Shown here in pieces: positions 3,526-61,536 of a DNA stretch of 64,000 bases. A model generated the notes under the pieces. It had not been told where the DNA came from. It saw nothing but the letters and a program-made list of their open reading frames with translations, and searched no databases. The DNA is taken from the IMG/VR virus record IMGVR_UViG_3300044634_002329, positions 32,001 through 96,000 of that record; one strand, written 5' to 3'. Source of the stretch: a virus. The translations under genes were made by a program, and so were the position numbers. The stretch's first letter is position 1, and every line of letters starts with the position of its first letter.

Positions 3526-3532
3526 AAAAATT

Positions 3533-12634: not shown

Positions 12635-12907
12635 ATGGCAAAGACAGCTGCATGGACCCGTAAGGAGGGAAAGAATCCTACAGGAGGATTAAATGCTAAA
12701 GGAGTAGCAAGTTATAGAGCTGCTAATCCTGGTAGTAAACTTAAGACAGCTGTTACTACCAAACCATCAAAACTTGATCCGGATAGTAAACCGGCCAAAA
12801 GAAGAAAGTCATTCTGTGCTAGGATGTCAGGTATGCCTGGACCTATGAAGGATGAAAAAGGAAGACCTACAAGAAAGGCTCTTTCATTAAGAAAGTGGAA
12901 TTGTTAA
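12635..12907 (+). CDS. small basic phage protein (DUF6321-like)
   Basis: AWTRKEGKNPxGGLNAKG...RRKSFCARMxG...SLRKWNC signature. Confidence 0.7.
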   Translation: MAKTAAWTRKEGKNPTGGLNAKGVASYRAANPGSKLKTAVTTKPSKLDPDSKPAKRRKSFCARMSGMPGPMKDEKGRPTRKALSLRKWNC

Positions 12908-12918
12908 AACATTATATA

Positions 12919-45000: not shown

Positions 45001-45766
45001 AGCATATAGTAGATTATATGAAAACATGTTTGGAGTAACTCCAACTATACATATTTTCCCAATTGAAAGAGAATCTAATAAAGATACTGAACAAGTTTTA
45101 ACAGCAGGTAAACCAAGCAACCCTACTTTGTTTAATAATATTCAATATGAAATAGATCCAGAAACCGGAAATTTTGTACTAGATGCTTTTGGTAATCCTA
45201 AATTTACTATATTAGATAAAGGAGTAAATTCAAATAAATTTATACCTTTGTATATAGAGACAGTTCAAGATAGAATTAACTCTGTAATACCATTAAAAGC
45301 AGTGGCAACGGCTACTGAAAATGTAGTTGAGACTCCTGAAACTAATGAAGAAGAAGAAACACCTACAAAAAAGAAGAAGTCTAATTTTGTTAATGATAAT
45401 CAAAATGATCCATATACTGTAGGAACTATGGTATATGATGCAGATGGTAATTCATATCAAATAACAAGAAGATTTAAAAATGGTAATGTGACTATTATAG
45501 GTTCAGATAAAACAAAGATTAAAATGACTATGAAAGAACTTGAAGAAAACTATAAACTTGAAAATGAAGTTTATAATCCAACATCACCTACAGGAGAATA
45601 CAATCTTACTCCTGAAGAAGATGAAACTCTTAAAAAATCACAAAACACTGTTAATGAATTTATTGATAGTGACACATTAGAAAATAAAGCATTTGAAGAA
45701 GCTTTAACAGCTAATGAATCTGACATTAAAAATAGTCTATTTAATAAAATTATAAATTGTCAATAA
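39071..45766 (+). CDS. giant ejection protein with membrane-like segments and a C-terminal PD-(D/E)XK nuclease domain
   Basis: Gly/Ala-rich hydrophobic segments, EGVQESLQE motif; IAGEIDLL...IVDIKTG...QQAAY nuclease motif (about 44840-45010). Confidence 0.7.
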   Translation: MATTNEETFSSLDPLGPEYGNINQPTLDNQGLSAFEGERIRDKQINFPTPQRFTPIAPGLNNLESPNQNVRRNVVNSAPNKPGINKNSSHQDLVNGINAKLRAKIQTNQDKNSYAKIYSYDAGPDANAFYKRYQAYGQETFDKIGFSPLRDNEALFNSRTTMWDDHVRMMKHSFWPLFSQGFTAGPKSLMKMFSGDFTSSDLEESKAYEEAAAIGQSNKGGIGGFTNNLLMNFAYSAGIMTEAVVEEVAGILLAPETLGASLFLTTANNLRKVGKIAKGVDRAIDGMKAVNTTLKSVDNFSSAKKFWESTKALSSSSFNPLKNTLQGFKDAQGTLKIGSEINNFTNLGKAYKTAGGFYKDVRNINMALSEARLEAGTVENKIYDNLYNEYYKEHGTSPDDAQQYEMIKQAKKGAVNTLYWNTALIYGSNTITFPNIVGPKGGLNNFMKNTVKELQTVEGGKFGKLGSIVYDKAKKQFEFQANDFKTYVKNWAKQPVYKSLKSTLGYTKANFTEGVQESLQEIISGANERYYTDSFKSPVIQSHTYAKGISQYNSMTQGDYMMAEAKKQMSSQGLETFASGFFMGTLASPINKSFDFLSVGYNRMFKPEVFQQYKAEKEKIATDTVKKLNEIDMKDFFDTRMFNYGVQDAVSSIKKTGTTKEAHDADHDGFMSQMDMLMRTGTLDVFKDKLKEMQQMSPEEVEENIPTIPKEEAKKYQARIDDTLTKIDRIEKRRDYYNQKFPNPVDIENVDASNVMQYEDDVALHYAWNDAIKHAVYFNETFEDTMQRKKDIVSRYLSKTPLKGMSQIDSEVLFDGNKLNNEIMMLTDEVAALKDLDDPQSKKQLKEKSKKLEAYEILSDASNNFKNFFNRYDNTEKLKAKLQKEKGEKPVTDEELEKALDEQYGEFSEENIGLYYANYANGYKKYLKMISNDDDMLFDQDIQESFILLADHHKLDKESRKLMSYVNLLHDPNGFIQQVERTKEWMKDLYRRRESYYKEMVDRELDNVEDNTLMNALADVGIYMSAEDYANYSDNGIPPKEFVDNVNKMVYKRGTQKYNEIYNEYLEKKDSLKASKVKKKTGTSTLKDTFNKKLEEINKKEQEELNALAKSKTRADVKTFETNSINITDTEFIKSQLEPEQYVELKYPENPKLNKIFFLDKDGVLKYDDVNGVPVDELDADFTQSGAYEATVFKYTEAVDPELKKEIQDKYQKQRDEILKEYNKDITYEGEEGEFTPIPENVTGDQIKKEHANFYQKEILPLFNAYLEKTYPDINDRLNIFEEEENEILTEFIKTPDIQAIIKAYNVKNSPVEDKADYILEFKGVKTDTSKASIDDLKALIIKIENEIESLKNNTTTNFSKNIIELETELTNLRGVIKGRAQKKYTPEQKAAIENVKRLQALNKKSVEAGVVLEQDDTVTGLKKGAIAYRINGKFHRRVSNVVDKLKKEGYNYTSEKDVRDAYAETIEVEGLTNDSVDKFIDELIKRNIAGSDGIFFEKLRSRLKSMVVEPVDVQIKNLQKQIAELNTKIADAKLKDETVKEQQYITAKEKIAEEIIALEMSQPSNDQSDIEAKKAELKKQIEALPDDMIYGAHVTQDQVAQDIFNSQFEYSLGTGLQGTIGLTSKKGLLTLMNNLLDGNSPHRNQFGVFITAWPKSEFGETTINNKVDLDKIESDMLDNYPEMSEGKIPTKFNFGYFKNGKLFTNNDKTVTEEPVTPGQNKTNHDDIVKMLDSNLKVKGVINQVEGSTGVSMSLDYWDKNKKVIFYNHDRTVTPEDYGKEVELRLIPVYQTEDGKVFNNAIEVWQGDRFLGLVAETDYVTPKEEKNLVEDVLELISENTYADSRTAGNYIDKAVKDLFSKGIQPKFVEGAITREAYDSLFGPDGYLTELKNQADNGDIFIASDNLVVWDSDIILPNKAKDRIAGEIDLLIVDKDGTTRIVDIKTGEQRTWNIFNSTQTKENTPVFAKRESFTLQQAAYSRLYENMFGVTPTIHIFPIERESNKDTEQVLTAGKPSNPTLFNNIQYEIDPETGNFVLDAFGNPKFTILDKGVNSNKFIPLYIETVQDRINSVIPLKAVATATENVVETPETNEEEETPTKKKKSNFVNDNQNDPYTVGTMVYDADGNSYQITRRFKNGNVTIIGSDKTKIKMTMKELEENYKLENEVYNPTSPTGEYNLTPEEDETLKKSQNTVNEFIDSDTLENKAFEEALTANESDIKNSLFNKIINCQ

Positions 45767-48700
45767 TGATAACTTGTCCTATTAATGATCCAGAAATTGT
45801 AAGTTTATTATATAAACTTATTGTAATTAAATTAAATAATTTTTCAAGTAATGAAACATTTGATCATGAAGCTTTTTTAAAAGAATTATATGATGAAATA
45901 GCTGATAAAACTTCACCAGAAGTAGCAGCTAAATATTTACAGTCTGTACCAAGGTTACTTAGTTTAGCTGCTATTAAAAGGTTTGAAAATATTGATATTG
46001 ATACAACTGCATTAAATAAATTAAGTAGAAAATTTAAATCAGAAACTGGTATTGCTGAGATCATTCAAACATATTCTACTGATTCTGATGAAGAGTTACG
46101 TAGAAAAATTAAGGAAAAAGAAGATGCAGAAAATAAAATACCTGTTGAATCAACTAGTGATCAACCTGTAATATTATTACCAACTAGATTTAAAGCAGCT
46201 TCTGCAGCTTCTGGAACTTTACAACAATTTGTAAAAGTTGACCCTAAGAAAAAAGGTCAGCATGATGAAGTAATTATTGAGACTATTGATCCTGAATTAG
46301 AAACAACAATAAATGTTACTAATAAAATAAATGACTTACAAAATACTACACTACCAGGTGAAGAACTTAAATATCAAGGTAAAACATTAAGATTAAAAGT
46401 ACAAGATGTTGTTGGTTTTAGAAAAGAATATTCTGATAAATTAAGAAAAAATGATGAAGAAAGTTTAAAAAGAAGTTCTGCTATTCTTGCACAAGGTAGT
46501 AAACTAGGAGATGTTATACCTATAAATGCACAAAGTTTATTAGTAATTACTGATGATAATGGTAATTTCTTATACTTTGATAAAGACGGTAACATTACTG
46601 ATGAAGCTAATGGTAATATTGTATATCAATTTTTAAGACCTGTAAGAAAAGACGGTAAAGAATATACTGTTACTAATGTATATACAACTGAAAGTAGTGT
46701 TGCAACTCCAGAACAAATTGCTCAACAAACATATGATCAAAATTCAGATATTGATTATGATGCATATGTAAAAGCAATAAAACAACAACAACAAGAAGAA
46801 TTTAAAGCTCTTTATGGCATACAAGAACAAATTAAGTCAGGAGATAAAACAAGTATATTACTCCCTATTACTGGAGTATCATCTGGTGTACCAAGTAATT
46901 TATCAAGTACTATCATTTATTTAAATGAATTATCAAAATTTCCAGGACTTGATATAGCATCAATATTAACTAGTATTAATGTTATAACATCTGATACAGC
47001 TAGTTTTAAAAAAGGTCAAACAACTGTACGTATTAATGGTGGTGAATTTAAGATTAATAATCCTAGAATGAATGAGGAATTAATGTCTGAAATTGCCGCT
47101 ATGCTAATGGATCCAAACCCTCCTGCATCATTAAAACAAATATATCTTAATCAATTTATTGATACAACAAAAGATACAACACGTAGAATTCAATTTAATT
47201 CTATTGACAATACAATTGAATTATATAAAAAAACATCTACTAAAAATTCTTCAGGAACTTATACATTTGGTAAAGTAATTAACCGTACTATTGATTTAGA
47301 AAAACTTAAAAATAATGGATATACTGAACAAGAACGTCAAGATCTTGAAAAAGATATATTACAATATTTAAGAGAAGGTTTTAAAAATGGACCTACATTA
47401 ATTAATATCAACAGTAGTTTAATTAAAAATCAAAAAGAATTTATTAGATATAATAGAGATACTAAAGAACCATACTCAGGTGACTATTTAGAATTTATAT
47501 CTTCTTTTCCTGCAGAAATTAATTTGATTAATGCAGATCCAGGTATTTATAATAGATCAATAGAGTTTGCATTTCCAGGAAGTTTTATTGATGACTTACA
47601 AAAAGCTGATAAAAATTTAAATAATACAGAAGGAGAAAACTTAAGCTTTGAAGAAATTCTTAAAAGAAAAGAAGAAGAGGACAATAGAAATCCTGTTAAA
47701 GTAGAAGCACGTGATATTATTGCTAATTCAAAATCTGAAGAATTTTTAAATAAAGTTAAAAACTATCCAGGTAATACTAATATTAATCCAACAGATAATT
47801 TTCTACTTGTTGCATACTTTAAAGCAGCTATTAAAGAAAAAAACTATACAAAAGAATTTGCTAATAGTATTAAGAATGAAATTCAAAGTCTTTTACCATT
47901 AAATCCTTTAAGTGTAGAACAAGTTAAAATGATTGAAGATGAGATTGATGCTATTAAAGAAGTACCAAGTCCTTCTCAAACTCAAGCAGAAATCAAAGAT
48001 CAGGTAGAAGTACCGGGTGCTCCTGATCCGATAAATAATGCTACTACTAATGGGATGTTTACTGATAATGATATAGATGATGATATCTTTAAAGGTTTAT
48101 TCAGAAGAGGTTCTAAAGATGAAAAGATAGCTAGAGAAAAAGTTATTGCAGCTAGAACATGGTGGAATAGTCCTGAGTTAGCTCCTTTAAGAAAAGTTAT
48201 TAGTCTTGAACATGTAGCTAACTTAGTTAACTCTGATGTATATGCTTCTTTTATTACTAATGCTAGTAAAATAGCAAACCCTGATGGGACACTTGGTAAG
48301 ATTACTGCTAATACAGCAAAAGGATCTGTATTTCAAAACTTAACTATTTACCATGAAGCATGGCACGGATTCTCTCAATTGTTTTTAAGTAAACAAGATA
48401 AAATTGATTTGTATGAAGAGTTAAGAAATTATACCACACCTAAAGGTGCAACTCCTTATGCTACTAAATCTTATTTGGAACTAGAGGAAATGTTAGCAGA
48501 AGACTTTAGAAACTATGTTAAAACCGGTAAAGCTAAAGCATCTTCTCCTAAAAGAAATACTTTGTTTAGAAGAATGGTGGAGTTCTTAAAACAATTATTT
48601 GGTAAAGGATTAAAAAAATTCAATAACAAAGATGTTCTTATTAATAGCCTTAATTCACCAATGGCTAAAGAATTATTTGACAAACTTTATATTGGAGATA

Positions 48701-51700
48701 TTAATAAATATACACCTTTAATTGATAACTCTATGTTCTACTCATTAGATAGAGGAGTACCTAGTGTCAATAATAAAAGAAATGTTGTATTAAGTAAACA
48801 AGATTCAACACTTGCTGTATCTTCTATAGATGGTATTTTTAGTCAAATTTTAAATACTATTAATGAAAAAGCTAGAGTTGCAGGTAAGTCAGGAGCTAAA
48901 GGAGCTAATATTGCTGTATTTTTAGAACCATCAAGAAGAGCTGCATTATATGTTCAAGCTAAAAAAGAATTAGAATCTAAATTAAAAATAGAAAAAGATA
49001 AATTAGCTAAAGTAGAAGGTATTGTAAACTTTAGTACATTAACAACACTACAAGAAATTAAAGATAATGCAGCTGGTGTATTTGTAAACTCAGAAGGTAA
49101 GAACAAATTTATATTTTTAAAATCTCAAATTGATGATTTTACAATATTAGAACCTTCATTAAAAGCTAATGGTGATAGAGTTAAAGGAGAAAAATACCAC
49201 GGGATTAAAATTGTATCAGACTTTTACAAACATAAAACCATTTTAAATGGTAAAGTTCCTGCTGATATTATGGTTGTAACTTCAATGGCACAAGCTGAAG
49301 AACAATTAAAAAATTATATTGATGGTAACTCAAAAGCTTATACTAAAGTAATTGATAATAAATTAGAAAATCCAGTATTATTAACAGAAGATCAAGAATT
49401 TATTCAAGACAATATTAGAATTCTACAAACTATGCTTGACAATTACGGAGATGAAAACTCTGGATTGGTTAAGTATCATATGGAGAATAGTGACTTTGAA
49501 ATATCTAAAACTAAATATGAGTTAGATGTTATTGATGAAAACAATGATGAAGCTATTAGTGAAAATGATTTAGAAAATTCAGGAAGAGATATAGAAACAT
49601 TTAATGATGTAAAAAAACATAAACAGTCTTTACTTCAAACGATGAGTAAAGAAACTACTATGTTACTTAAAAGTCTTATTAAAACAGATGGTAATAATGT
49701 TGTTAAAAACAGATTAGGATTTCCTGAAAGAGTTGATTTTATTAAAGTATTTAATATTGTAGCTAAAACTATTGGTGGAGTAAGAGATAGAGAACTGGCT
49801 TATAATTTATTAAAAGCTGAAGCTTCAAAGTTTCCTGAAATTCAACAGTTAATTGATTTTAAATATCCAGATCCTAATACTAAAAATTCATATGAATTTG
49901 ATATTAGTAGACAATTTTTACAAGATTTTGGAAAACCAAAAGTTACTTATAAAATTGTATTAGCTGTACCAGATGAAGAATCAGGTACAATTGATTTTAA
50001 ATTAGCAGAAGCATCTTTAGCAATTAGTAATATTACAGGTAGATGGCAAACAGAATTTGTTAGTGCATCACCTAGTAGATATATTAAGAAAACTCCAGAT
50101 AATGAATCTGAACTTAATTTACAAAATATACTTACTGACTTTAGTAAAAAAGATGAATTAGTTATAAGTAAAGCATTTGACTTTGCTAAAGCTATAGGTA
50201 TTAATCTAACTGTAAATGATAATATCAAATCTGATTTTGATTCTAAATTAGAATACTATGGTATTCCGTTTATGTTTAATATAGTTAAAGACTTTGCTCA
50301 AATAGAACAAGATTTAAACAATCCGGCTACTGCTGCATCTGTGTCATCTGCACAAAAAACATTTCTTAATAAATTTAAAGCTAACCCTATTGAAGTTTTA
50401 AGAACAGCAGTTCCTATAAATATTTTAACTACCTTTCCTAAAGGTATTAATGAGAATACTCAAATCACTAGATTAGCTGAATTACAAGCTAAATACGGAT
50501 ATGACTCAGCAACAACAGGTGTAATTACTGCAGATGGTAATACAGCTTATGAAGATGTTAATTACAGTTTTATGACAGGATTTGTAGATGCTGTTAACTC
50601 TGTATCTAACATAAGAGATTTATGGACTAAGAATGAATATAGCCACATGGCTTATTTAAATCCTAATACTAATACATTTACTAAGAACTTAAGAATATTA
50701 AATGAAATATTTGATATGCATACTGGTGCAAAAAAACCAGGTAAGTCTCTTCAGTTAATGAATGTAAATGGTACTAGTCAAATTACAGAAGATGAAAATG
50801 GTAACTCAAATACTGAAGGTACTGTTACAGCTGACTTAGATCCAATAGGAAAAGGATTACAAGAATTACATTCTATGTTAGGAGGAGGTGTCTCTGAGTT
50901 TAATAGAATGTCTGAAAAGAAAAATGCATATGGTCTTAAAGTAGTAGGAGGTATTGTTGGTAAAACAGATCCTATTAGTTATGCTACCAAAGGAGCAGAT
51001 ACAGACTTATATGTAGATGTAATCCAATTTGCTAATAATGGTAATGGAGAAATCTATGCTATTAATAATCATTTCCTTGGTTATATCCAATCTGAATTTG
51101 ACAGAATAGTTAAATTCAAAGGTAACAGACGTGAAGAGTATTTAAACTTTACAGGATTTAATAACAAAGTAAATGATGTAAACGGTGTTGAAAAATATGC
51201 AGGTGAAGTATTTAATGACTTTGATGATATCCTATCAAAAGATACACAAAATCAATTATATGCTCTTGCTGATCAATATGCAAATAGTAATGAAGTTAAT
51301 ATACCTTTAGTACAATATTTAAAAACTAATTCTAAGTTATTAAAAGATATTCAAACAGATATTACTAATTACTTTGATACTGTTACAGAAAAATATAAAA
51401 CACTTTACTTTGATAAATTACCTTATATATCTAAGTCAATACTAGTAAAAGCAGGAGTACCTAAAGAAAAACTACTAACTAGAAAACAAGTTGAAGAAGC
51501 TCAAGAAGATCCTAAAAATATTCAGACAGTTCTTAAAGCATTTATGTATAATGACTGGATTCATAGATTTGAGGTCTCCTCTTTAATGTTTGGAGATAGA
51601 GCACAATGGAATCATGGTAAAGAAGAACAACCTAAACGTATTCCAGGAGCACAATCTGATGGTATAGGATTTCTATATGATCAATCTTCAAGAGATTTTA

Positions 51701-54700
51701 TTAATGATGTATTTAATAAAACTACTGAAACATATGGTGCCAAATTAACTAGAGAGTCTGAAGATAATACTAAGTATGATTCATTTAAATATTCAGATGT
51801 ACTTAATACTGCAGTTATTAAAGATGCTCAACGTGAATCTATTTATTTAGCAGAATATCAAGCTGCATGGAAAAAAAATTATATAGAAGTAAACAATTAT
51901 TCTGAAGAAGAAGCAGATAGATTAGTAGAATTAGATTCAAAACCTTTTAGAAAAGATAAAATGGATGAATCTGATGGTATTGCTTATATGACTCTTGATG
52001 CATATAGAACATTACATAAAACAGGTAGAGGTTGGTCAGTAGCTCAAGAAGCATTGTATCAAAAAGTTGTAGCTGGTGAAACAATTTCAACACAAGATGC
52101 TAAAGAATTTTTTCCAATTTACAAATTACATTATTATGGTTCATTAAAAAATGATTTGTTACCAGCTATGGCTATGCATAAGTTTTCTGTAGCTCCTTTA
52201 ATTCCAGGTGTGTATCCTGAAACTAGTGAATTAGGAAAACTACATAAAAAAATGTTAAAAGATAATGTTCAATATGTAACATTTAAATCTGGTTCAAAAG
52301 CAGTTACATTAACTAATGGAGGGAATGTAGATAACTTATTTGCTAACAGTAATGAAAACAGTATTAATGAAGATTTTACTTTTACTGTTAACCCAATATT
52401 CATGGCTAACTTAAAAGAAGTAACAGTTATCAATGAATACTACAAAAAAACATTACCTATTGCTACTCAAACAAGAGTAATCATATTAGATAACTTATAT
52501 AATGATGGTAAATTAACTAATTCAGATAATGCACCGTTAGTTAATGATTATAAAAATGTAGTTAGGGATTATTCAATTGTTTTAAAAGATGAATTATTAA
52601 ATAAAATTGGATACTCTCTTAATGAGGATGGAAATTATGAAGGTGACATTACTACTTTTGTACAGGTATTAAGAGAAGAGTTAGGTAATAGAGATATCCC
52701 AGAACAGTTATTAAAATTACTTAACACTACTAAAGAAGGTAAATTATCTATAGATCTATCTTTACATCCTCAAGCAGAAACTATTGAAAAGTTATTATTA
52801 AGTATTATCCAAACTACATTAATTAAACAACAGACTAATGGGGAACCATTAACTCAAATGCCGTCTACATTTACAAATGGTATCTGGGATGATCAATATA
52901 AAACATTAACAAATCCTGCTGATATTGAAAGATTATTAGGAACTAATACTCTTCCTTTTTATAACATTAATAAAACTACAGGTAAAACCAACTTAATGAA
53001 AGTTGCTATTGCTTTACAAGGGGAGTATAAAAATTTATTGAAAGCAAAAGACTTAGATGGTAATGTAATTGGTACTATTGACAGATTAAATGAATTAATT
53101 AAAGATGATAAATGGTTAGAACAAAACCGTGATGCTATTTCATTGTTTGGACCACGTATTCCTAATGATGCTACAAATACAATTGAAGGAGCTGAAGTAT
53201 GGCATTTCTTTAATGAAAGTTTTGGTAATGCTATTATATTGCCTACTGAAATTGTAGCTAAAGCTGGGTCAGATTATGATGGAGATAAGTTATTTATGTC
53301 AATGCCAAACGTTGATAAAGATGGTAACTATATTAATAAAGGAATTGATAATTATGATGCTTTATTAAAAGAAACTATTGCATTAGAAAAAGATGGTAAA
53401 CTAGGTAAAGACAGATTAAAATCAGGTCAATTAATTGAACTTCAAAAAAAATATTTACAAAACTTATATCTTAAAAAATCAATTGATCTTTTAACTCTTC
53501 CTGATAACTTTGGATATTTAACTAAACCAAATCAAACATACTTAGTTGAAAAGTATGCAGAAGATTTACAAAAATTAGGCACAGGATATAATAGATATGA
53601 AAGTGCTACTCATGGTAGTCCAAAAAAATCTGTGGGTCCTAAAGATAAACAAAAAGATGTAGTTAGTCCTACAAGACAAAATGAAATTAGCCATCAGTTA
53701 TATTTACATGATGCTAACTTATCTTTAGAGCCTTCATTAGGTGTACAAGCCAACTTTACTAAAAGTCATGTATTATATAAAACTGTTGGTGTAAATATGC
53801 CGGCTACTTATACTACTTCATATACTAACTTTTCAGTTAATAGAGTAATTAAAAGTTTAATTGAGTTGCCTATGGTGATGAGACTAAAACATAATACTGC
53901 AATTAATGAAGCTGGTAAAGAAGTAATATCATTATCTGGAGAAAAAACTCAATTAGGTACTAGAATTACTGATATTAATTCACATGCATTAAATGGTATT
54001 TTAGATAGAGCTAAGAACTCTTTCCCATTTGATTTAAAACTTGTACCAGAAGCTATTAATACGTTAAACTACATGCTTCAAGCAGGTGTTAGTGAAGAAG
54101 AAATTTTTTACTTTTTAACTCAACCATTAATAGTTGAATACATTAAAGATCAAAAGTTAAGAAAAAGTCCTTACTATAGTATTGTATATGGTGAATCTAA
54201 AGGTAGTAAAACTACAGCATCTGCAAATGCTATAATTCAAAATATGATTAATGTAAAAGGAGTAGATTTTACTTCATATTTAGCTGATATTAACTTACTA
54301 AAATTAAAAGCTACATTAGAATCTTATGCTGCTTCTGCTAAAAAAAGTAAAGAAGCTTATAATGTAAAATTAAAAGATGAGTCAATTTTATACACTCTTA
54401 CACCAGAAGAAATAATTAATAAAATTAATAACGGTGATATTGATCCAACAACAATAAAAAAAATATTTAATAGTAATGCAAAAGATGCATTTGAAGAAGT
54501 AACTGAATCAAAAGAATTGTTTACAGATAAAAATTATGCATTTACTACTCAAGCATTCTCAAATGCTTTTTTACCAGAAGGGATAATTAATATTGACTTT
54601 TTAAAAAAACATATTAAAGATTCTAGTAGTCCTGCTGCCTTAACATTGTTTTTTAATTATTTAGAATTAGAACAACAATATGAGGGTATGAGTGAATTAG

Positions 54701-57700
54701 AAAAAGTATTTAGTCCAGATAAAATTAAATTAACTACAGCTCAACAAGTGATTAAAAGAGAAGAAGCATATAAAAATTTATATGAAAATAGTAAAGTTGA
54801 TAAAGCTTCTCTTGAGAGATTAACAAAACAATCTGTTTTATCTTCTTTTAATCAAGATAAACTAATATTAGATTTAGTTACTCCATTGTTCCCATTAAGA
54901 TTAAGTAATGAAATTTCTAGTTACATTACTAAATTATTTAATGATCCAACTGAAAGTCGAAAAATTAGAAATAAGTTTGGGACAGGTATTGATGGTCAAG
55001 AATTCTTTACTAAAAAATATCAAAATGCAATTGTAGCATACATTTATCAAAACTACATGTCTAGATTTGTTAATGCTGATGGTACTTTGACTAATATTCC
55101 GGAATCTTATAATGGTAAACCAGTACTAGTTAATAATGATATCAATACTAATGTTATTATAGATAAAGATAGTATCATAATTAATAGTGATAGAGTTAGA
55201 ACTGAGTACCAAAGAAAAGTATATTTAAGTGCAAATAAAAATGTAGGATACACAGGTGATAAATTTGCAAAAGATCCTTTTAATACTTTAAATAGTTACT
55301 ATAGATATACAATTGAAAAAGAATTATTAAGAACAAGTATTCCTATTGAAAGTTTAGAACAAAATAAAGATTTTCTTAATTTATTAAATACTTATAATAC
55401 TGCAGACGAAGCATATGAATCATATATTTCTGAAAAAGCTTTAGCTAATACTTATAATAGAAGCTACATTGTTGGTACAGCTAAATATAGTTATACTGAA
55501 AAAGTATTAAATATTATTAAAGAGTTTGAGAATACAAACTTAAAAGATAAATATCCTATACTAGCTCAACTAGCTCCTGTTAAAACTAAAAAAGCTGTAA
55601 AATTAATTCAGTTAAATGATAAACAAATAGCTAAAGGAGTATTAGGTGAAATATACATTAACAACTTAATTAATTTAGCTAACCCTATTATTAAAAAAGT
55701 TGATGATCCTATTGATAATCAAAGAATTAGTGACGTATTTAAAGATTTTTCTTTAATGATGTTTTATCAACATGGAGTTGGTAATAGTAAATTAGGTTTT
55801 GTAAATGCTATAGACCCTGAAGTTTATACAGAAAGTATGACTAAGTTTTCTCAACAGTTTTTAAATAACTATTTATCAGATGATTCATTGACTGATGTTT
55901 ATAATATGCTAATGGCTCCTGGTAATCTATTTGGTAACTTTGAAATTAAAGATGTAGAAAATGAAAAACCATACTCTAAAGCAGATCAGTTAACACCTTT
56001 TGAATTACCAGGATCTACTTCTCCTGTGGCTAATATACCACAAAATAAAATATCTGGAGTAGCTTCTTTTGGATCTACAGTTACTGCAAATGATGAAGTA
56101 ATTAAAGTACTTGGAGCAAATGCACATTCTATAGATATGATAGAATCTGGTTTAAGAACTAGGACTACAAGAAGTGAATCTGAAATGGCAAAATATGCTG
56201 TTAAGGTGGGAGATATCATTAAGCATTTTGGTAAGTCTGCTGATGGTTCAACTAAAACTATTTTAGCTAAAGTAACAGCAATACATCCTAAAGGAACACC
56301 TGGATTTAAAGGTACTTGGAATAAAGAAGGTTGGAGATCTGAAGATGTAAATGTTATAGACAGATTTAAAGATGGTGCTGCAGCTATTGAGTTTGAAATA
56401 ATTAATAATAATCAAACACCAGGATCTACTTCTGTTAATAAAAAAGTTATTAAAAATGAAAAAGGTTTAATTATTATTAATAATGCAATTCCTACAGAAA
56501 AAACTATTGATATTGTAAAAAATAATAAAGATTTTATTCAAGAAACATCTTTTAAACAAACAAATGGTTCAGTATCTTGGGGTTATGGTATGCAATGGAT
56601 TAGAAGTTCTGCATTAACAGATAAACAAAAACAAGGTGTTCAAATAGGAAAACAAATTGGTGGACAAGAAGTAACAGAAGAAATGGTAAATCAACTTCTT
56701 GCTGGAACTGAAGCAAAGAAAATTAAAGGAATGCCTTTATATGTATATACTAATATTGATATAAATGGAAATAGATTACCTAATATACCTAATGAGATAA
56801 TAGAAATACTGTTAGAACAAGGTATTGATGTATCTCAATATGATGCAAGTTATAATTCTGTATATGATAAAAATGACAAAGGAAGTCTTATTGTTCATCA
56901 GGATAATACAGAATTTAACACATCTCCTATTATTACTGTGTCTTTAGGTAGACCAATGAAATTTATTACATATCAATTAAAAGATTCTAGTAATTATTCA
57001 TTTGGTACAAATGCTAAAAATAGATATGAATTAACATTAAATACAATATCTAATAAACTTGTAGCTGGTAAATTAGCTCCTGAGTTAAAAAGACAAAAGA
57101 ATTTTAAAGGTGATGAAGTTATAGGTTATGGTGAACTTACTCCAGGTAATTTAGCTAAATATGCTAAAATGGTTGGAGAAGAATCTGCAGCATTAGATGC
57201 ATTAGCTAATTCAATAGAAAAAATTGAAGAACATACTTTAACTAATGGAGCTGTTTTAGTATTCTCTAAAGAAAATAGAAATGTATTTCATGAAATTATA
57301 TTTGATGAAGAAACAGATGCATTACCTATGCCTAAAGGTTTTCCTGAATTAACTATTAATAAAGCTTATAAAGGTTTAGGTAAACCAGATCAAATGGTTA
57401 AAACTAAAGACTATAGAGTTGTATTAACACTTAGAAAAGTTAACGGCACTAAAGAATTAGATGTAGTTGATACAAATAAACTTACAGCATCTCAACCTAC
57501 ACAAGTTCCTACACCTATTCAACCTATAAGTGATATTGATAATAGTAATAAACCTGTATTAAATAGTCTTCCTAATAAGTCATCTATCCCAACTATGACT
57601 TATGCGGGTATTGGATCTAGACAAACCCCACAAGAAGTTCTTAATAAAATGACTGAAGTAGCTAAGTATTTAGATGGCTTAGGTTATACATTACAAACTG

Positions 57701-60700
57701 GTTTTACATTTAAAGATAAAAATACAGGTTTAGATGAAGAAGGTGCAGATAAAGCATTTTCAGATGGAGCTCAAAATAAAATATTGTTTGGACCTTCAGG
57801 TATTAGAAAAACAATAAATGGAGAAACATCAGTAGATACATATAATCCAAATGTAACTACTAAATCTACTGATGTGGTTAAAGAAGTACATCCAGCACCT
57901 GAAAAATTAAGCCCAGGAGCTTTAAAGTTAATGGCAAGAAATACTAATCAAATCTTTGGTAAAAATCTTGATAGTACAGTAGATTTTGTAATATTCTATG
58001 CTCCTGAAACAAACAATCCTTTAAGACCTAAAGGTGGTACAGGACAAGCTGTAGAAATGGCTAGAAGAAAAGGTATCCCAACTATTAATTTAGCTAATAG
58101 TAATTGGAGAGAAGAGTTAAAAACTGCACTTGCTAATAGATCTACTCAATCACCTACTAAAGTTGAAGTAAAAGCTTTTAGAACATCAGGTACTTTTTCA
58201 TCTACAGTAGACTATGCACAAAGAGGTTCCGGAACATATTATGCATTAGATAAACCATTTCAAGAACTAGGAAGAACAGATAAAGTTGAAGAAGTAAATG
58301 TATCTTATAACCCATCTAAAACTTTAGATGCAACAACTGAAGAAGGTCAATCTAAATTTATGGAGATTAAAAGAAAAGCTGTTGAAGGTAAAACTTTTGA
58401 TGAAATAAAAGATTTAAATGATGCAGTTTCTCAAGAAATGATGAATAATGGATATGAGTCATTAATTGGTTGGATTGATGAAGATGTACCTAATGTAGGT
58501 AGAGAACTTGTTATATATCCTACTCAATCATCTACTGATACAAACTATCAATTACCACAAAATAGAGAATTAGAAGAATACGTAGCATCTGAAAAAACTA
58601 TTAGAGATTTAGCTGCTAGAATGTCTGATAGAATAGGTATACCTTTTATATTTGAATCTGATAGAACTAAAGAATATAAAGGTAAATTAGAAAGTGATAG
58701 ACAAGTATTAGATGCAGATCCTGAAGATGGAGTTACTTATGGAAATGTAAAAAATACTGCTTTTATTAATTTAGCTTATGCTACATTAGATACTCCTATA
58801 CATGAAATATTAGGCCACCCTATTATCAGAGCTATTAAAAATAATACAAAAGGGACTTTTTATGAACCTAAATATGACAATTCTTTAAATCAATGGGTTA
58901 TTGAAGAACATAAAATTGATGATTATGATGTTCATTTTTTTAATACAAAAAAAGAAGCTGATGCTTTTTATAAAAGTAAACAAAGTCAACTTTATCAAAA
59001 CTTACTTAAAGAACTTGAAACAGGTAAAGGTAAAGAAGTATTAGATAGAATTAAAAGAGATTATAATAAAAAATTTGAAAGAGGTAAATCATTTACATTT
59101 GAAGGTAAAGATTACATTGCAGATAATGCAAGTAAAACAGGTTATAGAGATAAATATGGAAATGATGTAGAGTCTAATGAGTTAGAAATTAGTTTATTTG
59201 CTTATGAATTAAAACATAAAGATAAAATTTATTATACTTTAGAAGAGCAACAAGAAGAAGCTCTTGTAGAACTTTTAGGTATGATGACAGCTGGAAAACT
59301 TGATGCAGTTAAAGATGGTAATTTAATTTCTCTTTTAAAAAGACTTCTTAAAGAAATAAAAACTTTTGTAAAAGATCTTTTAAAACAAAAAGAAATAGAA
59401 ATAAATAAGTTACCTGATAATATGACATTAGGGGATATATCTGATATATTAGCTTATAGTAATTCTAAACTTATACTCCCTGGTAATGAAGTAGAATATA
59501 CTACTCCTGATAATCAAAAATTTAAAACTTATCAAGAAGCAAGTAATCATATTAGTCAATTAGTTAAAAATATTAAAGATGTTGATTTAGATAATATTAA
59601 GATTGAAAATAAAGGTATTCCTAATCATTTTCAAAAAGATACGTATCAAGGAGACAGAGACTATACTGATTGGTATTCATTTAATGATGGAAAATATTAT
59701 GTAGAACGAGATGGACAAAATTATGAAGATGGTTTTAGTAGAACAAAAGAAATAACTAAACAAGAATTTGAACAAGCTTATATAGATTCTCAAAACTATG
59801 GAGGAATGATTGGTAAAGGTACTATTGATTCTGATATTACTTCTTTTATAGCAAAAAATAAAGAATATGAACAATCTAAAGAAATTATAGATGAATGGAA
59901 AAAAATAAATAATATTCAATATAAACCAGAAGAAATATATAGTAGAGGTCAAGAATTTACTTCAGTTGTTGGAGCTTATTCTGATTTTGATGTAAATCTT
60001 ATGATGCAAAATTTATTATCTCATATTGAAGATAATGAAAAAGCTGGAGGTAAATTTGCAATATCAGCATTTACTAAACCTATTGATAAAAAAATATCAC
60101 ATCTAGAAGGGGGAGGAGGTAAAATTAAATTTAAAATTTATCCACAATCTCAAGATATTTTATGGGCTGCTAATATTGATGTATATTCTGGTAGTGTTTG
60201 GGATGCTGCAGACAAAGTAAATAAAGATAAAAAATCTGAATTACTTGGAGTAAGTTATACTAAATATCCTTCATTAGACAATGTAAATGCTGTACAACCT
60301 AATTTAGCTTCTATTGTAGATGATTTAGCTCATCATCATAATGAATTAGGTATTTCTTTAACTGGTAATAACTTTAGATTAGAATATGATGATAATATTC
60401 CTAACACAACTAAAAAAATTATTGATAGTATTAATTCTATATTAGATCAAAAATATGGTAAAATAATTAAACCTGAAATTAAAAAACAAGAACAACAAAT
60501 AATAAAATATGGGTTATTTAGTAAAGGTGCTAATGATATTTTAGATGAGTTTAATACAAAAGAAGAAGCTCAAACTGCTGTAGATTTTAATAATAAATTA
60601 TTAATTGATGGAGGAGAGTCAGCAGACTATTCTGTAGTTCCAATTAAAAATATAGGTATTCAACCAACTCAAACTAAAAATAATATAAAAGAAGATATTA

Positions 60701-61536
60701 AAGATGTTAGAGAAAAAATAAGAAAACAATATGATGAAACTATATTTCATAAATATAGTAAAGATGAATTAGAAATTGTTCCTTTTGAAGATCAAAAAGG
60801 TTATTTTATAATTCAAACTAAACAAAAAAATGCTAATGGTTATCCATTAGATGATACTATTAATATTTTTAAATCAGAAGATTTAGCTAAAGCACATATT
60901 GAAAAAAATTATAATGAATTAAAAACAATAAAACCTAAACCAGATTATACTACACAAGCTTTAATTAATACTAAAATAGCTGCACTTAAAGAAATAGCTA
61001 AAAAATATCCAAGAACTTTAATTAGAAATGAAGTTAAACCTATAAATGAATTAAAATCATTTAATCAATTTGAAATAGATGAATTACCATTTCAAAAATT
61101 AAAGTCTAAATCTTTTATTAATAATAATAATATATCACCTATAGAAAATGATCAAGAAATGTTTAACCAAATGGTTAAACAAAACAATGGTCAATACCCT
61201 AAAAGATTTGAAAATCAAGGTAGAGTTTGGTTATTAAATGCAAATAACTTATATGATTCTATTGATGATGTATCTAAAAGTATCATTATTAAAAACATGA
61301 ATATGGTTACTGGACAAATTGAACCAGAAATAAAAACAGAAACACCAGTTAATCAAGAAGAATTATTTAATTTTATACAATCAATTAATAATTCAATTTT
61401 AAATGAAGGGTTAGATGTAATATTAGCTAATAATGGAATAAATGTACAAGATATTCTTGATGAAGCTAGTAAAGTTACAACTCAAGAAGAATTAACTGAT
61501 TTAGAAAATAATTTAAAGAAATACATATGTCGTTAG
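45766..61536 (+). CDS. virion-packaged DNA-dependent RNA polymerase (phi14:2 gp66-like), polyvalent protein
   Basis: ATG 45766 overlaps upstream TAA; RIP (53155) and GSDYDGDK catalytic motif (53272-53286); zincin HEAWH (48352) with EEMLAEDF; C-terminal accessory domains. Confidence 0.85.
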   Translation: MITCPINDPEIVSLLYKLIVIKLNNFSSNETFDHEAFLKELYDEIADKTSPEVAAKYLQSVPRLLSLAAIKRFENIDIDTTALNKLSRKFKSETGIAEIIQTYSTDSDEELRRKIKEKEDAENKIPVESTSDQPVILLPTRFKAASAASGTLQQFVKVDPKKKGQHDEVIIETIDPELETTINVTNKINDLQNTTLPGEELKYQGKTLRLKVQDVVGFRKEYSDKLRKNDEESLKRSSAILAQGSKLGDVIPINAQSLLVITDDNGNFLYFDKDGNITDEANGNIVYQFLRPVRKDGKEYTVTNVYTTESSVATPEQIAQQTYDQNSDIDYDAYVKAIKQQQQEEFKALYGIQEQIKSGDKTSILLPITGVSSGVPSNLSSTIIYLNELSKFPGLDIASILTSINVITSDTASFKKGQTTVRINGGEFKINNPRMNEELMSEIAAMLMDPNPPASLKQIYLNQFIDTTKDTTRRIQFNSIDNTIELYKKTSTKNSSGTYTFGKVINRTIDLEKLKNNGYTEQERQDLEKDILQYLREGFKNGPTLININSSLIKNQKEFIRYNRDTKEPYSGDYLEFISSFPAEINLINADPGIYNRSIEFAFPGSFIDDLQKADKNLNNTEGENLSFEEILKRKEEEDNRNPVKVEARDIIANSKSEEFLNKVKNYPGNTNINPTDNFLLVAYFKAAIKEKNYTKEFANSIKNEIQSLLPLNPLSVEQVKMIEDEIDAIKEVPSPSQTQAEIKDQVEVPGAPDPINNATTNGMFTDNDIDDDIFKGLFRRGSKDEKIAREKVIAARTWWNSPELAPLRKVISLEHVANLVNSDVYASFITNASKIANPDGTLGKITANTAKGSVFQNLTIYHEAWHGFSQLFLSKQDKIDLYEELRNYTTPKGATPYATKSYLELEEMLAEDFRNYVKTGKAKASSPKRNTLFRRMVEFLKQLFGKGLKKFNNKDVLINSLNSPMAKELFDKLYIGDINKYTPLIDNSMFYSLDRGVPSVNNKRNVVLSKQDSTLAVSSIDGIFSQILNTINEKARVAGKSGAKGANIAVFLEPSRRAALYVQAKKELESKLKIEKDKLAKVEGIVNFSTLTTLQEIKDNAAGVFVNSEGKNKFIFLKSQIDDFTILEPSLKANGDRVKGEKYHGIKIVSDFYKHKTILNGKVPADIMVVTSMAQAEEQLKNYIDGNSKAYTKVIDNKLENPVLLTEDQEFIQDNIRILQTMLDNYGDENSGLVKYHMENSDFEISKTKYELDVIDENNDEAISENDLENSGRDIETFNDVKKHKQSLLQTMSKETTMLLKSLIKTDGNNVVKNRLGFPERVDFIKVFNIVAKTIGGVRDRELAYNLLKAEASKFPEIQQLIDFKYPDPNTKNSYEFDISRQFLQDFGKPKVTYKIVLAVPDEESGTIDFKLAEASLAISNITGRWQTEFVSASPSRYIKKTPDNESELNLQNILTDFSKKDELVISKAFDFAKAIGINLTVNDNIKSDFDSKLEYYGIPFMFNIVKDFAQIEQDLNNPATAASVSSAQKTFLNKFKANPIEVLRTAVPINILTTFPKGINENTQITRLAELQAKYGYDSATTGVITADGNTAYEDVNYSFMTGFVDAVNSVSNIRDLWTKNEYSHMAYLNPNTNTFTKNLRILNEIFDMHTGAKKPGKSLQLMNVNGTSQITEDENGNSNTEGTVTADLDPIGKGLQELHSMLGGGVSEFNRMSEKKNAYGLKVVGGIVGKTDPISYATKGADTDLYVDVIQFANNGNGEIYAINNHFLGYIQSEFDRIVKFKGNRREEYLNFTGFNNKVNDVNGVEKYAGEVFNDFDDILSKDTQNQLYALADQYANSNEVNIPLVQYLKTNSKLLKDIQTDITNYFDTVTEKYKTLYFDKLPYISKSILVKAGVPKEKLLTRKQVEEAQEDPKNIQTVLKAFMYNDWIHRFEVSSLMFGDRAQWNHGKEEQPKRIPGAQSDGIGFLYDQSSRDFINDVFNKTTETYGAKLTRESEDNTKYDSFKYSDVLNTAVIKDAQRESIYLAEYQAAWKKNYIEVNNYSEEEADRLVELDSKPFRKDKMDESDGIAYMTLDAYRTLHKTGRGWSVAQEALYQKVVAGETISTQDAKEFFPIYKLHYYGSLKNDLLPAMAMHKFSVAPLIPGVYPETSELGKLHKKMLKDNVQYVTFKSGSKAVTLTNGGNVDNLFANSNENSINEDFTFTVNPIFMANLKEVTVINEYYKKTLPIATQTRVIILDNLYNDGKLTNSDNAPLVNDYKNVVRDYSIVLKDELLNKIGYSLNEDGNYEGDITTFVQVLREELGNRDIPEQLLKLLNTTKEGKLSIDLSLHPQAETIEKLLLSIIQTTLIKQQTNGEPLTQMPSTFTNGIWDDQYKTLTNPADIERLLGTNTLPFYNINKTTGKTNLMKVAIALQGEYKNLLKAKDLDGNVIGTIDRLNELIKDDKWLEQNRDAISLFGPRIPNDATNTIEGAEVWHFFNESFGNAIILPTEIVAKAGSDYDGDKLFMSMPNVDKDGNYINKGIDNYDALLKETIALEKDGKLGKDRLKSGQLIELQKKYLQNLYLKKSIDLLTLPDNFGYLTKPNQTYLVEKYAEDLQKLGTGYNRYESATHGSPKKSVGPKDKQKDVVSPTRQNEISHQLYLHDANLSLEPSLGVQANFTKSHVLYKTVGVNMPATYTTSYTNFSVNRVIKSLIELPMVMRLKHNTAINEAGKEVISLSGEKTQLGTRITDINSHALNGILDRAKNSFPFDLKLVPEAINTLNYMLQAGVSEEEIFYFLTQPLIVEYIKDQKLRKSPYYSIVYGESKGSKTTASANAIIQNMINVKGVDFTSYLADINLLKLKATLESYAASAKKSKEAYNVKLKDESILYTLTPEEIINKINNGDIDPTTIKKIFNSNAKDAFEEVTESKELFTDKNYAFTTQAFSNAFLPEGIINIDFLKKHIKDSSSPAALTLFFNYLELEQQYEGMSELEKVFSPDKIKLTTAQQVIKREEAYKNLYENSKVDKASLERLTKQSVLSSFNQDKLILDLVTPLFPLRLSNEISSYITKLFNDPTESRKIRNKFGTGIDGQEFFTKKYQNAIVAYIYQNYMSRFVNADGTLTNIPESYNGKPVLVNNDINTNVIIDKDSIIINSDRVRTEYQRKVYLSANKNVGYTGDKFAKDPFNTLNSYYRYTIEKELLRTSIPIESLEQNKDFLNLLNTYNTADEAYESYISEKALANTYNRSYIVGTAKYSYTEKVLNIIKEFENTNLKDKYPILAQLAPVKTKKAVKLIQLNDKQIAKGVLGEIYINNLINLANPIIKKVDDPIDNQRISDVFKDFSLMMFYQHGVGNSKLGFVNAIDPEVYTESMTKFSQQFLNNYLSDDSLTDVYNMLMAPGNLFGNFEIKDVENEKPYSKADQLTPFELPGSTSPVANIPQNKISGVASFGSTVTANDEVIKVLGANAHSIDMIESGLRTRTTRSESEMAKYAVKVGDIIKHFGKSADGSTKTILAKVTAIHPKGTPGFKGTWNKEGWRSEDVNVIDRFKDGAAAIEFEIINNNQTPGSTSVNKKVIKNEKGLIIINNAIPTEKTIDIVKNNKDFIQETSFKQTNGSVSWGYGMQWIRSSALTDKQKQGVQIGKQIGGQEVTEEMVNQLLAGTEAKKIKGMPLYVYTNIDINGNRLPNIPNEIIEILLEQGIDVSQYDASYNSVYDKNDKGSLIVHQDNTEFNTSPIITVSLGRPMKFITYQLKDSSNYSFGTNAKNRYELTLNTISNKLVAGKLAPELKRQKNFKGDEVIGYGELTPGNLAKYAKMVGEESAALDALANSIEKIEEHTLTNGAVLVFSKENRNVFHEIIFDEETDALPMPKGFPELTINKAYKGLGKPDQMVKTKDYRVVLTLRKVNGTKELDVVDTNKLTASQPTQVPTPIQPISDIDNSNKPVLNSLPNKSSIPTMTYAGIGSRQTPQEVLNKMTEVAKYLDGLGYTLQTGFTFKDKNTGLDEEGADKAFSDGAQNKILFGPSGIRKTINGETSVDTYNPNVTTKSTDVVKEVHPAPEKLSPGALKLMARNTNQIFGKNLDSTVDFVIFYAPETNNPLRPKGGTGQAVEMARRKGIPTINLANSNWREELKTALANRSTQSPTKVEVKAFRTSGTFSSTVDYAQRGSGTYYALDKPFQELGRTDKVEEVNVSYNPSKTLDATTEEGQSKFMEIKRKAVEGKTFDEIKDLNDAVSQEMMNNGYESLIGWIDEDVPNVGRELVIYPTQSSTDTNYQLPQNRELEEYVASEKTIRDLAARMSDRIGIPFIFESDRTKEYKGKLESDRQVLDADPEDGVTYGNVKNTAFINLAYATLDTPIHEILGHPIIRAIKNNTKGTFYEPKYDNSLNQWVIEEHKIDDYDVHFFNTKKEADAFYKSKQSQLYQNLLKELETGKGKEVLDRIKRDYNKKFERGKSFTFEGKDYIADNASKTGYRDKYGNDVESNELEISLFAYELKHKDKIYYTLEEQQEEALVELLGMMTAGKLDAVKDGNLISLLKRLLKEIKTFVKDLLKQKEIEINKLPDNMTLGDISDILAYSNSKLILPGNEVEYTTPDNQKFKTYQEASNHISQLVKNIKDVDLDNIKIENKGIPNHFQKDTYQGDRDYTDWYSFNDGKYYVERDGQNYEDGFSRTKEITKQEFEQAYIDSQNYGGMIGKGTIDSDITSFIAKNKEYEQSKEIIDEWKKINNIQYKPEEIYSRGQEFTSVVGAYSDFDVNLMMQNLLSHIEDNEKAGGKFAISAFTKPIDKKISHLEGGGGKIKFKIYPQSQDILWAANIDVYSGSVWDAADKVNKDKKSELLGVSYTKYPSLDNVNAVQPNLASIVDDLAHHHNELGISLTGNNFRLEYDDNIPNTTKKIIDSINSILDQKYGKIIKPEIKKQEQQIIKYGLFSKGANDILDEFNTKEEAQTAVDFNNKLLIDGGESADYSVVPIKNIGIQPTQTKNNIKEDIKDVREKIRKQYDETIFHKYSKDELEIVPFEDQKGYFIIQTKQKNANGYPLDDTINIFKSEDLAKAHIEKNYNELKTIKPKPDYTTQALINTKIAALKEIAKKYPRTLIRNEVKPINELKSFNQFEIDELPFQKLKSKSFINNNNISPIENDQEMFNQMVKQNNGQYPKRFENQGRVWLLNANNLYDSIDDVSKSIIIKNMNMVTGQIEPEIKTETPVNQEELFNFIQSINNSILNEGLDVILANNGINVQDILDEASKVTTQEELTDLENNLKKYICR
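56007..56433 (+). repeat. 16-nt direct repeat ACCAGGATCTACTTCT flanking ASCH-like domain
   Basis: Identical copies at 56007-56022 and 56418-56433, both encoding PGSTS. Confidence 0.8.
58142..58536 (+). repeat. 17-nt direct repeat CTACTCAATCAYCTACT flanking ART-like domain
   Basis: Copies at 58142-58158 and 58520-58536 with one mismatch, encoding TQS[PS]T. Confidence 0.75.

Follow-up and report, generated by a model that had tools for sequence, protein, structure and literature searches.

A Giant ORF with a Variable C-Terminal Region

The DNA window analyzed here comprises 64,000 nucleotides (nt) of a virus (IMG/VR record IMGVR_UViG_3300044634_002329, positions 32,001 to 96,000) and contains a giant open reading frame (ORF) that carries several predicted enzyme domains and short direct repeats in its C-terminal part. 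The window is part of a complete virus record of 119,985 bp with direct terminal repeats. Its G+C content is 30%, and nearly all genes in it, several of them very large, lie on one strand. Positions are those of the window, and the features named lie on its plus strand unless stated otherwise. The giant ORF (45757..61536) encodes 5259 amino acids (aa) from TTG 45757; its protein is called Q, and residue numbers refer to this 5259-aa ORF. Since P0002, the IMG/VR collection's own entry for Q, is 100% identical and has 5256 aa, the true start is probably ATG 45766.

Judged by its sequence, the ORF is a crAss-like virion RNA polymerase (RNAP) of the polyvalent-protein kind from a complete 120-kb lake phage, because it combines DxDxD and HExxH motifs with a 3397-aa core that aligns with viral relatives. 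In the RNAP core, the DxDxD catalytic motif reads SDYDGDK (aa 2505-2511, 53269..53289) and lies, as in crAss-like virion RNAPs, within a very large protein. The zincin-type HExxH motif, HEAWH (aa 866-870, 48352..48366), is located in the N-terminal part and marks a candidate processing peptidase; it is kept in the relatives inspected, and no Pfam or PHROG match covers that part of Q. The core (aa 1-3397) shares 31-48% identity with the giant ORFs of the IMG/VR loci L001-L007. By homology to crAss-like virion RNAPs, Q would be carried inside the virion and pass from there into the host.

In the seven IMG/VR relatives, the core was common up to Q residue 3390-3397, and the region beyond it differed. 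The last ~130 residues were also common to the five relatives of the same clade that reach their own stop codon. Between the core and this conserved C-terminal domain (aa 5130-5258, 61144..61530, ending in ...KKYICR) lies a variable cassette array (aa 3398-5129, 55948..61143). Q thus unites, in the manner of polyvalent proteins, an RNAP core with ASCH, AlkB-like, SLOG/DprA-like and ADP-ribosyltransferase (ART)-fold segments and further blocks in one ORF.

The first cassette (aa 3424-3550, 56026..56406) is predicted to have an ASCH fold. Its structure model (predicted local distance difference test, pLDDT, of 94) matched 9kyf_A in Foldseek (E 5.2e-4, probability 1.00), besides 2z0t, 3s9x and 5guq, and the matches, which include the ac4C amidohydrolase YqfB and ASCH entries, point to an ASCH/PUA-like beta-barrel. 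It is followed by an AlkB-like 2OG-Fe(II) dioxygenase cassette (56446..57489), which scored 41.9 bits against Pfam PF13532 (cut-off 31.2, E 1.6e-10); since its scores against the NCBIfam AlkB equivalogs were far below their cut-offs, it is a member of the AlkB family, not an AlkB orthologue. The SLOG/DprA-like cassette (57529..58141) was recognized by PHROG 768 (E 5e-45), and this part matched stand-alone phage DprA-like genes in tblastn. The next cassette (120 aa, 58159..58518) probably has an ART fold, with an activity that is a prediction only. Its model (pLDDT 88) was closest in VIA-align to 9k3a_B, a chain of a cyanophage pre-ejectosome (Z 6.1, root-mean-square deviation 4.0, 103 aligned residues), followed by MbcT (Z 6.0), NatT (5.4), ParT (4.5), diphtheria toxin (4.2) and PARPs (~3-4). 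Almost all of these neighbours are ART-fold proteins, all of them below the caution line of Z 8, and Foldseek gave no match of this model to the PDB at E <= 0.001. In Pfam and NCBIfam, neither the ASCH, SLOG and ART-fold segments nor the last 870 aa had a match. The labels proposed for these domains in a preliminary description of this DNA thus stood for AlkB, SLOG and ASCH, and for the ART-like domain at the level of the fold only (Z 6.1-4.2).

One or more further cassette blocks extend from near ASEKTIRDL to the end of the array (58585..61143), with an IQPTQT linker at 60658-60675; this part matched P0005, a related giant protein, at 46% and had no family match. It also contains HEILGH at 58801-58818, with the spacing HExxxH and not HExxH. 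The cassettes are presumably injected with the DNA and act on host nucleic acids and defences.

Direct Repeats at the Cassette Borders

The ASCH and the ART-fold cassettes are each flanked by a pair of short direct repeats. The 16-nt sequence ACCAGGATCTACTTCT is found at 56007..56022 (repeat 1a, aa 3418-3422), the left edge of the ASCH cassette, and at 56418..56433 (repeat 1b, aa 3555-3559), the ASCH/AlkB junction. Its copies lie 411 nt, i.e., 137 codons, apart, are in frame and encode the PGSTS linker, in the context (L/T)PGSTS. The 17-nt sequence CTACTCAATCA[C/T]CTACT is found at 58142..58158 (repeat 2a, STQSPT linker, aa 4129-4134) to the left of the ART-fold cassette and at 58520..58536 (repeat 2b, PTQSST linker, aa 4255-4260) to its right, 378 nt or 126 codons apart and likewise in frame. 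In both pairs, every identical residue has an identical codon. The preliminary description had given these positions, spacings that are multiples of 3 and identity that includes synonymous positions, and all of this was reproduced. The degenerate SQPTQ linker that it had placed between the AlkB and SLOG domains was found as SQPTQVPTPIQP at 57490..57525, where homology to relatives ends; by its sequence, it belongs to the TQP family described below.

Domain Content Varies among Relatives

Relatives were compared as giant proteins (P-numbers; 120 listed of the 188 found by a search with Q residues 3380-4300) and, at the DNA level, as 19 loci (L-numbers). By simple signatures, 13 different domain orders were seen, and the order of Q, ASCH>AlkB>SLOG>ART, occurred in only 1 of the 120 giant proteins listed. 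The ART-fold cassette has five other positions or contexts among relatives. The domain lies in the C-terminal array of Q, L008, P0003, P0010 and P0014 and near the N-terminus (residues 608-726) of L002, L003, L004 and L006; L013 and L014, two giant proteins that show no similarity to the RNAP, contain it as well. The ASCH cassette had an 85% match in P0008 and P0014, elsewhere in their arrays.

Sequence comparison indicates that the cassettes are much more alike than the backbones. The ART-fold domains of Q and L002 share 71% aa identity, against 31-48% for the backbones. The AlkB cassette is 93.3% identical to that of L015 over 1047 nt, and the rest of the L015 ORF had no blastp match to Q. 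Its nt identity to L016 and L018 is 77-83%, with backbones that are 27-41% aa-identical (83% and 41%, respectively, for L018).

The backbone DNA of L007 and L002 is 96.6-97.6% identical, yet the two differ by three cassette indels or replacements, namely an ART-fold insertion, the replacement of another domain by AlkB, and a replacement involving 141 aa versus 532 aa. The SLOG-type segment of L007 (nt 12837-13455) is only 90.5% identical to that of L002, compared with 96.6-97.6% for the backbone; judging from this difference, it has probably also been exchanged.

The closest relative among the giant proteins listed, P0003 (82% identity over Q 1506-3919), is without the ASCH domain. At the corresponding site, it has a single ...MPGSKPTSVTPTNKKVIKNEKGL with a PGS..TSV linker, compared with ...LPGSTS, the ASCH domain and ...TPGSTSVNKKVIKNEKGL in Q. 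Elsewhere, inside the end of the conserved core (Q aa ~3366 to ~3376), P0003 has ~120 extra residues in place of SDDS of Q. They resemble a second, different ASCH-type domain, and a TQP linker is present on neither side.

Breakpoints Lie at the Repeats and Linkers

The limits of homology were mapped on Q. Homology of the AlkB cassette at the nt level starts at 56430 (L016), 56439 (L018) and 56446 (L015), at or just after repeat 1b, and that to the same three loci ends at 57492-57500, inside the SQPTQ linker. For the ART-fold cassette, it starts at 58140-58163 and ends at 58512-58518; for L002, L006 and L008, the last homologous position is 58518, just before repeat 2b. At the protein level, the ends of high-scoring segment pairs (HSPs) with 119 relatives cluster at aa 3410-3425, 3547-3571, 3881-3944, 4121-4149 and 4254-4264 of Q, and the first of these clusters, which holds repeat 1a, comprises the starts of 36 HSPs. 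All four repeat copies (aa 3418-22, 3555-59, 4129-34 and 4255-60) lie inside such clusters. Since the clusters were defined independently from the relatives and sum to ~188 of 5259 aa, or ~3.6% of the protein, the placement of the repeats is not due to chance. Thus, alignment of relatives, as had been suggested, placed the breakpoints at repeats and linkers; domain content is not fixed, and the breakpoints are not unrelated to the repeats.

Lake-water runs X3-X6 were available as Logan contigs, in which rare variants are dropped, and parts of Q left uncovered prove nothing. The fit of record 20 of X5 (635 nt, 11 differences) to the window begins exactly at 58142, the first base of repeat 2a, and stops exactly at 58536, the last base of repeat 2b; the flanks of this record, 155 and 85 nt long, are unlike the window. 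Record 19 of X5 fits no further than 57522, in the SQPTQVPTPIQP linker. A contig of X3 fits only from 56439 on, with a loose end before that position, and contigs of X4 and X6 fit only from 58591 on, again with loose ends before it. The junctions of Q are themselves spanned in other lake runs, at 56007-22 (X3 record 3 and X5 record 18), 56418-33 (X6 record 28) and 58520-36 (X6 record 29), and therefore these junctions are real. Joints in X5 such as that from 56405 to 58031 (side of 31) had short sides and a likeness of 88% and were not used.

A Family of Junction Linkers

By comparison with the junctions of relatives, the repeats are copies of a family-wide junction linker, TQP[ST]. Junction words in the relatives include ATTQPSTSVKP, KPTQPTVEPVGEVK, STQSTV, GTQPSTQPTT, NQSSTSVE and AQPSTSVE, besides others. 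The linker is commonly encoded by ACT CAA CC(T/A) (T/A)CT ACT, which in some copies is extended by AGT GTT AAA. When no motif was set beforehand, TQP was found in 71 of 620 distinct breakpoint contexts versus 2.55 expected, i.e., 28-fold more, and was the most enriched of the frequent tripeptides, followed by QPS, TTQ, QPT and PST. The single residues P, T and Q were enriched only 1.5-2-fold near breakpoints. TQ[PS] lay at most 12 aa from 108 of 661 breakpoint clusters, as compared with 1.0% of all positions, and two control motifs showed no enrichment near the clusters. More than half of the TQ[PS] motifs (119 of 203) were located in the last fifth of the proteins, the region of the array, and permuted motifs were distributed much more flatly. 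As in polymorphic toxins, a conserved sequence is thus present at the borders of variable domains, and breakpoints fall there.

IMG/VR had an exact 26-nt linker word in no more than 5 stretches, and 3 of these were on contigs already compared. What is conserved in the linker is thus a short, degenerate word, not an extended site of exact sequence. One linker copy, AQPSTSVENK... (nt ~2716-2793) in L015, has no domain behind it; the giant ORF stops 14-26 residues past this dangling linker.

Traces of Exchange at the DNA Level

Three further flanked cassettes were found in the relatives as junctions and not picked by nt identity. They are flanked by direct linker repeats of 11-21 nt, so that, with Q, four genomes show this arrangement. 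The AlkB cassette of L015 is flanked by CAA (T/C)CA TCT ACT AGT GTT GAA (20 of 21 nt identical), in which 6 of 6 identical residues use identical codons (p = 0.022). In L002, the linker repeat around a 530-aa insert reads CAA CCT ACT GTA..CCA GTA, also with 6 of 6 identical codons (p ~0.03). A domain of L007, called domain X, has CT ACT CAA CC on both sides, and the empty sites of L002 and L005 contain one copy.

L007 also shows where two homologies meet. Its homology to L002 covers nt 12837-13455 and its homology to L016 covers nt 13443-13876; the 13 nt that belong to both tracts are the TTQP linker word. Such an overlap is the trace expected from a crossover inside a short shared stretch.

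Codon choice was compared over linker pairs within one ORF. In 13 ORFs, 150 of 227 identical residues shared their codon versus 123.7 expected (z = 3.7). The T of TQ[PS] was encoded by ACT in 24 of 27 cases; ACT made up 51% of the T codons overall and 58% of those in other TQ contexts (Fisher p = 0.0015).

Interpretation and Rival Explanations

With variable domain content, breakpoints in linkers, near-identical cassettes carried by unrelated backbones, homology tracts that overlap at a junction, direct linker repeats in four genomes and empty sites with one copy having been observed, the C-terminal region of Q is very probably an array of exchangeable cassettes bordered by linkers. It is somewhat less certain, yet still the favoured view, that the exchange has as its very substrates the short stretches of identity (11-21 nt) in the linkers. 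According to this model, the conserved core (aa 1-3397) and the C-terminal domain (aa 5130-5258) would enclose enzyme cassettes that are exchanged independently of each other, and recombination between shared linker stretches of 11-21 nt would insert, delete or replace them in frame. Gain and swap would occur by exchange between co-infecting phages, and loss by recombination between the two flanking copies within one genome, with one linker copy left behind. The enzyme could possibly be a phage AAA_24/Sak4-like protein, or host functions might serve. The candidate is an AAA_24 gene outside the window (G000:C1:112725-113294, minus strand, locus L020; E 1.3e-23), the sole match among seven recombination-related profiles tried; the AAA_24 family includes the Sak4 single-strand-annealing proteins. 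The preliminary description had proposed the repeats as recombination sites. In-frame entry and exit of domains and breakpoints at the repeats agree with the proposal; its causal part, that linker identity promotes crossover rather than just surviving selection, would follow by inference, as would the roles of the domains.

Several observations weigh against recombination at the linkers, and most of them would suit an explanation by selection alone, in which random illegitimate joins occur, the in-frame survivors between domains are kept, the likeness of the linkers reflects codon bias and peptide needs such as flexibility and composition, and the repeats are passive. The length and number of the repeats are within chance expectation. 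No exact repeat in the giant ORF is longer than the 16-mer, which is accompanied by two 15-mers and six 14-mers, and codon-shuffled ORFs had a longest exact repeat of at least 16 nt in 241 of 300 trials. Repeated 16-mers numbered 1 versus a mean of 2.3 in codon shuffles, 17-nt pairs with at most one mismatch 18 versus a mean of 20.8 (60 shuffles), and repeated protein 5-mers in Q 13 versus 16.1 ± 4.5 (200 shuffles). The chance of identical codons given the peptides, 0.012 for PGSTS and 0.074 for T, Q, S and T, is a post hoc figure, the repeats having been picked by nt identity; the two matches to each repeat pattern versus 0.06 and 0.03 expected presuppose a pattern named beforehand and thus leave the question of chance unanswered. 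In Q alone, Q[PS][ST] linker pairs had no codon excess (9 of 14 shared codons versus 9.9 expected), and common descent of linker plus cassette accounts for part of the signs at the DNA level and may be all that lies behind codon identity between genomes. TQ[PS] is absent from 84% of the breakpoint clusters and present in only ~16%; breakpoints shared among related proteins inflate the p-values, and many HSP ends are noise. The ART-fold insertion near the N-terminus of L002, compared with L007, has neither a flanking repeat nor a TQP linker, and the left edge of the AlkB cassette has a different upstream linker in each context; illegitimate joins plus selection therefore occur too. Among the X3-X6 contigs listed, none joins 56022 to 56434 or 58158 to 58537 and none is a circular cassette junction, so that the junctions in metagenomes which the preliminary description had envisaged did not appear. 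Stretches of 11-21 nt are short for RecA-type recombination, and profiles for RecT, ERF, RecA and YqaJ had no match in the complete genome. Selection as the sole cause is nevertheless rather unlikely, because the enrichment is specific to the motif (28-fold for TQP, 1.5-2-fold for its single residues), TQ[PS] is concentrated in the cassette array with a bias to ACT while permuted motifs are flatter, and the 13-nt tract overlap, the direct repeats in four genomes, the single-copy empty sites and the X5 match that stops exactly at the outer repeat edges would be left aside. That the two repeats merely happen to lie near domain edges is very improbable: an A+T-rich ORF of 15.8 kb should contain repeats as long as these, but four of four copies fall in junction zones covering ~3.6% of the protein, the pattern recurs in L015, L007 and L002, and X5 record 20 stops at the repeat edges.

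The linker may also matter as a peptide, just as the conserved motif of Rhs toxins is also a self-cleavage site. TQP[ST] could be mainly a cleavage site at which the zincin-type peptidase of the protein itself, or another protease, frees the domains once the protein has been packaged or injected, and the DNA repeats would then follow from its conservation; this is doubtful as the main cause, and it could coexist with exchange at the linkers. The HExxH motif at aa 866-870 fits, as does the conservation of TQP[ST] across backbones of 25-40% identity and its confinement to the effector array. As given in the main text of Iyer et al. (2017, PMC5512222), a metallopeptidase was proposed to process polyvalent proteins into functional units, and fused polyproteins were called 'likely cleaved' in the available part of 10.1101/2020.03.07.982082. 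On the other hand, the literature searched holds no cleavage data for the giant-protein family of Q, the linker copy of L015 lies 14-26 residues before the stop codon with no domain to release, and a peptide signal alone leaves the signals at synonymous sites unexplained. It is similarly a tentative idea that the word was selected as a portable signal for both, in-frame recombination at the DNA level and, after injection, release of each effector by the protein's own peptidase. The integron-style mechanism named in the preliminary description, with the repeats as sites of a dedicated recombinase, was not upheld and is the most improbable of the explanations. The likeness is formal, a cassette array bounded by short repeats. 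The complete genome of 119,985 bp had no match to the tyrosine integrase profile PF00589, which matched 14 of 14 control genomes, and none to the serine recombinase profile PF00239, which also matched control genomes; hence neither an IntI-type integrase nor attC-like folded sites were found, the four 80-nt regions at the repeats having no hairpin potential as single-stranded DNA (z of -0.61, -0.90, +1.40 and +0.27; 200 shuffles each). The repeat sequences also vary between junctions and between genomes, and a circular junction was missing from the contigs listed. The observations fit recombination at short shared linkers.

Other Features of the ORF and Its Neighbours

The giant ORF overlaps its neighbours by ~10 nt at both ends (ORFs 39071..45766, 45757..61536 and 61527..), so that the three very large proteins are tightly coupled; the downstream ORF encodes another giant protein. 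A megablast search with 54000-61536 gave no close phage relative in GenBank. In tblastn against GenBank phages, 1049 records matched, with stand-alone DprA-like genes only and none covering at least 80% of the query. The 3081-aa N-terminal part of Q had no profile match in PHROGs or Pfam, save one below threshold.

An exact in-frame repeat of 15 nt at 48385 and 48790, 405 nt apart and encoding LSKQD twice, lies just after HEAWH and at no mapped breakpoint; it is probably due to chance. Q contains only two cysteines in 5259 aa, Cys 7 (45775-45777) and Cys 5258 (61528-61530), one near each end. A cysteine is present within the last 8 residues of 112 of 120 related giant proteins, in which cysteine makes up 0.05% of all residues.

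Comparison with Known Systems

With 5259 aa, Q is much larger than the crAss-like virion RNAP gp66 of phage phi14:2, which has ~2180 aa. The two resemble each other in the DxDxD motif, named in 10.1101/2020.03.07.982082 and also in PMC7886860, and in the crAss-like order of very large ORFs; fused polyproteins are known there, and PMC7886860 refers to 'giant proteins of the transcription block'. The available parts of these two sources do not deal with a C-terminal effector array like that of Q or with the turnover of such an array.

Polyvalent proteins, their variable architectures and their versions with a virion RNAP are already known. The main text of PMC5512222 describes 2-15 unrelated domains in one phage or plasmid polypeptide and raises 'recombinational variability' by analogy with polymorphic toxins. 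Q agrees with this account as a giant multi-domain protein that would be delivered with the DNA, has a putative zincin-type motif and belongs to proteins of highly variable architecture. It differs in the conserved junction linker, the flanking DNA repeats and the mapped breakpoints, which the available part of that paper does not describe; the words 'linker' and 'shuffling' have no occurrence in that main text, and the supplements may bear on prior description. More widely, in the literature searched, supplements apart, neither polyvalent proteins nor crAss-like polymerases were described with a conserved junction linker, flanking linker repeats or mapped cassette breakpoints.

Polyvalent proteins are regarded as the first weapons that a phage or plasmid delivers into the cell, and how their domain sets are rapidly rebuilt has not been worked out in the literature searched. 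The cassettes of the Q array move between backbones of little or no similarity, and the joins were mapped to the base, in a recurrent linker word of 11-21 nt; mapping at this level makes the question of linker exchange testable. As a practical rule, the linker word can be used to mark off effector domains in thousands of giant phage proteins that lack annotation, and the linkers suggest natural in-frame 'splice points' for the study of individual domains.

By analogy with polymorphic toxins and T-even adhesins, the pattern suggests recombination at short homologies. It shares with integron arrays the serial units bounded by short repeats and differs from them in having no integrase, no attC-like fold and units that are in-frame parts of an ORF instead of promoterless genes. 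Recombination at conserved border motifs is already known from T-even tail-fibre adhesins, which are shuffled at the conserved glycine-rich motifs of gp38 (Tetart 1996/1998, cited in PMC3157838). As far as the available part of PMC3157838 goes, the adhesin motifs form the core in the structure of one domain, with loops as the units; in Q, whole enzyme domains are the units and an unstructured linker is the motif. In the polymorphic toxins Rhs and CdiA, a conserved sequence marks where variable C-terminal domains meet a constant part, and homologous recombination replaces these domains, according to the portions available of PMC3967940, PMC3150448 and PMC4436062. Unlike these toxins, Q has several cassettes in series, is encoded by a phage instead of a bacterial chromosome and has no evident immunity genes, with no search aimed at orphan cassettes made. 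The shared stretch is 11-21 nt, compared with 522 bp in Salmonella rhs. If the linker word does serve as a portable signal for both recombination and release, it would give unrelated lake phages access to one shared pool of injected effector domains through short-homology exchange, and it would be a serial phage counterpart of the Rhs/CdiA border motifs.

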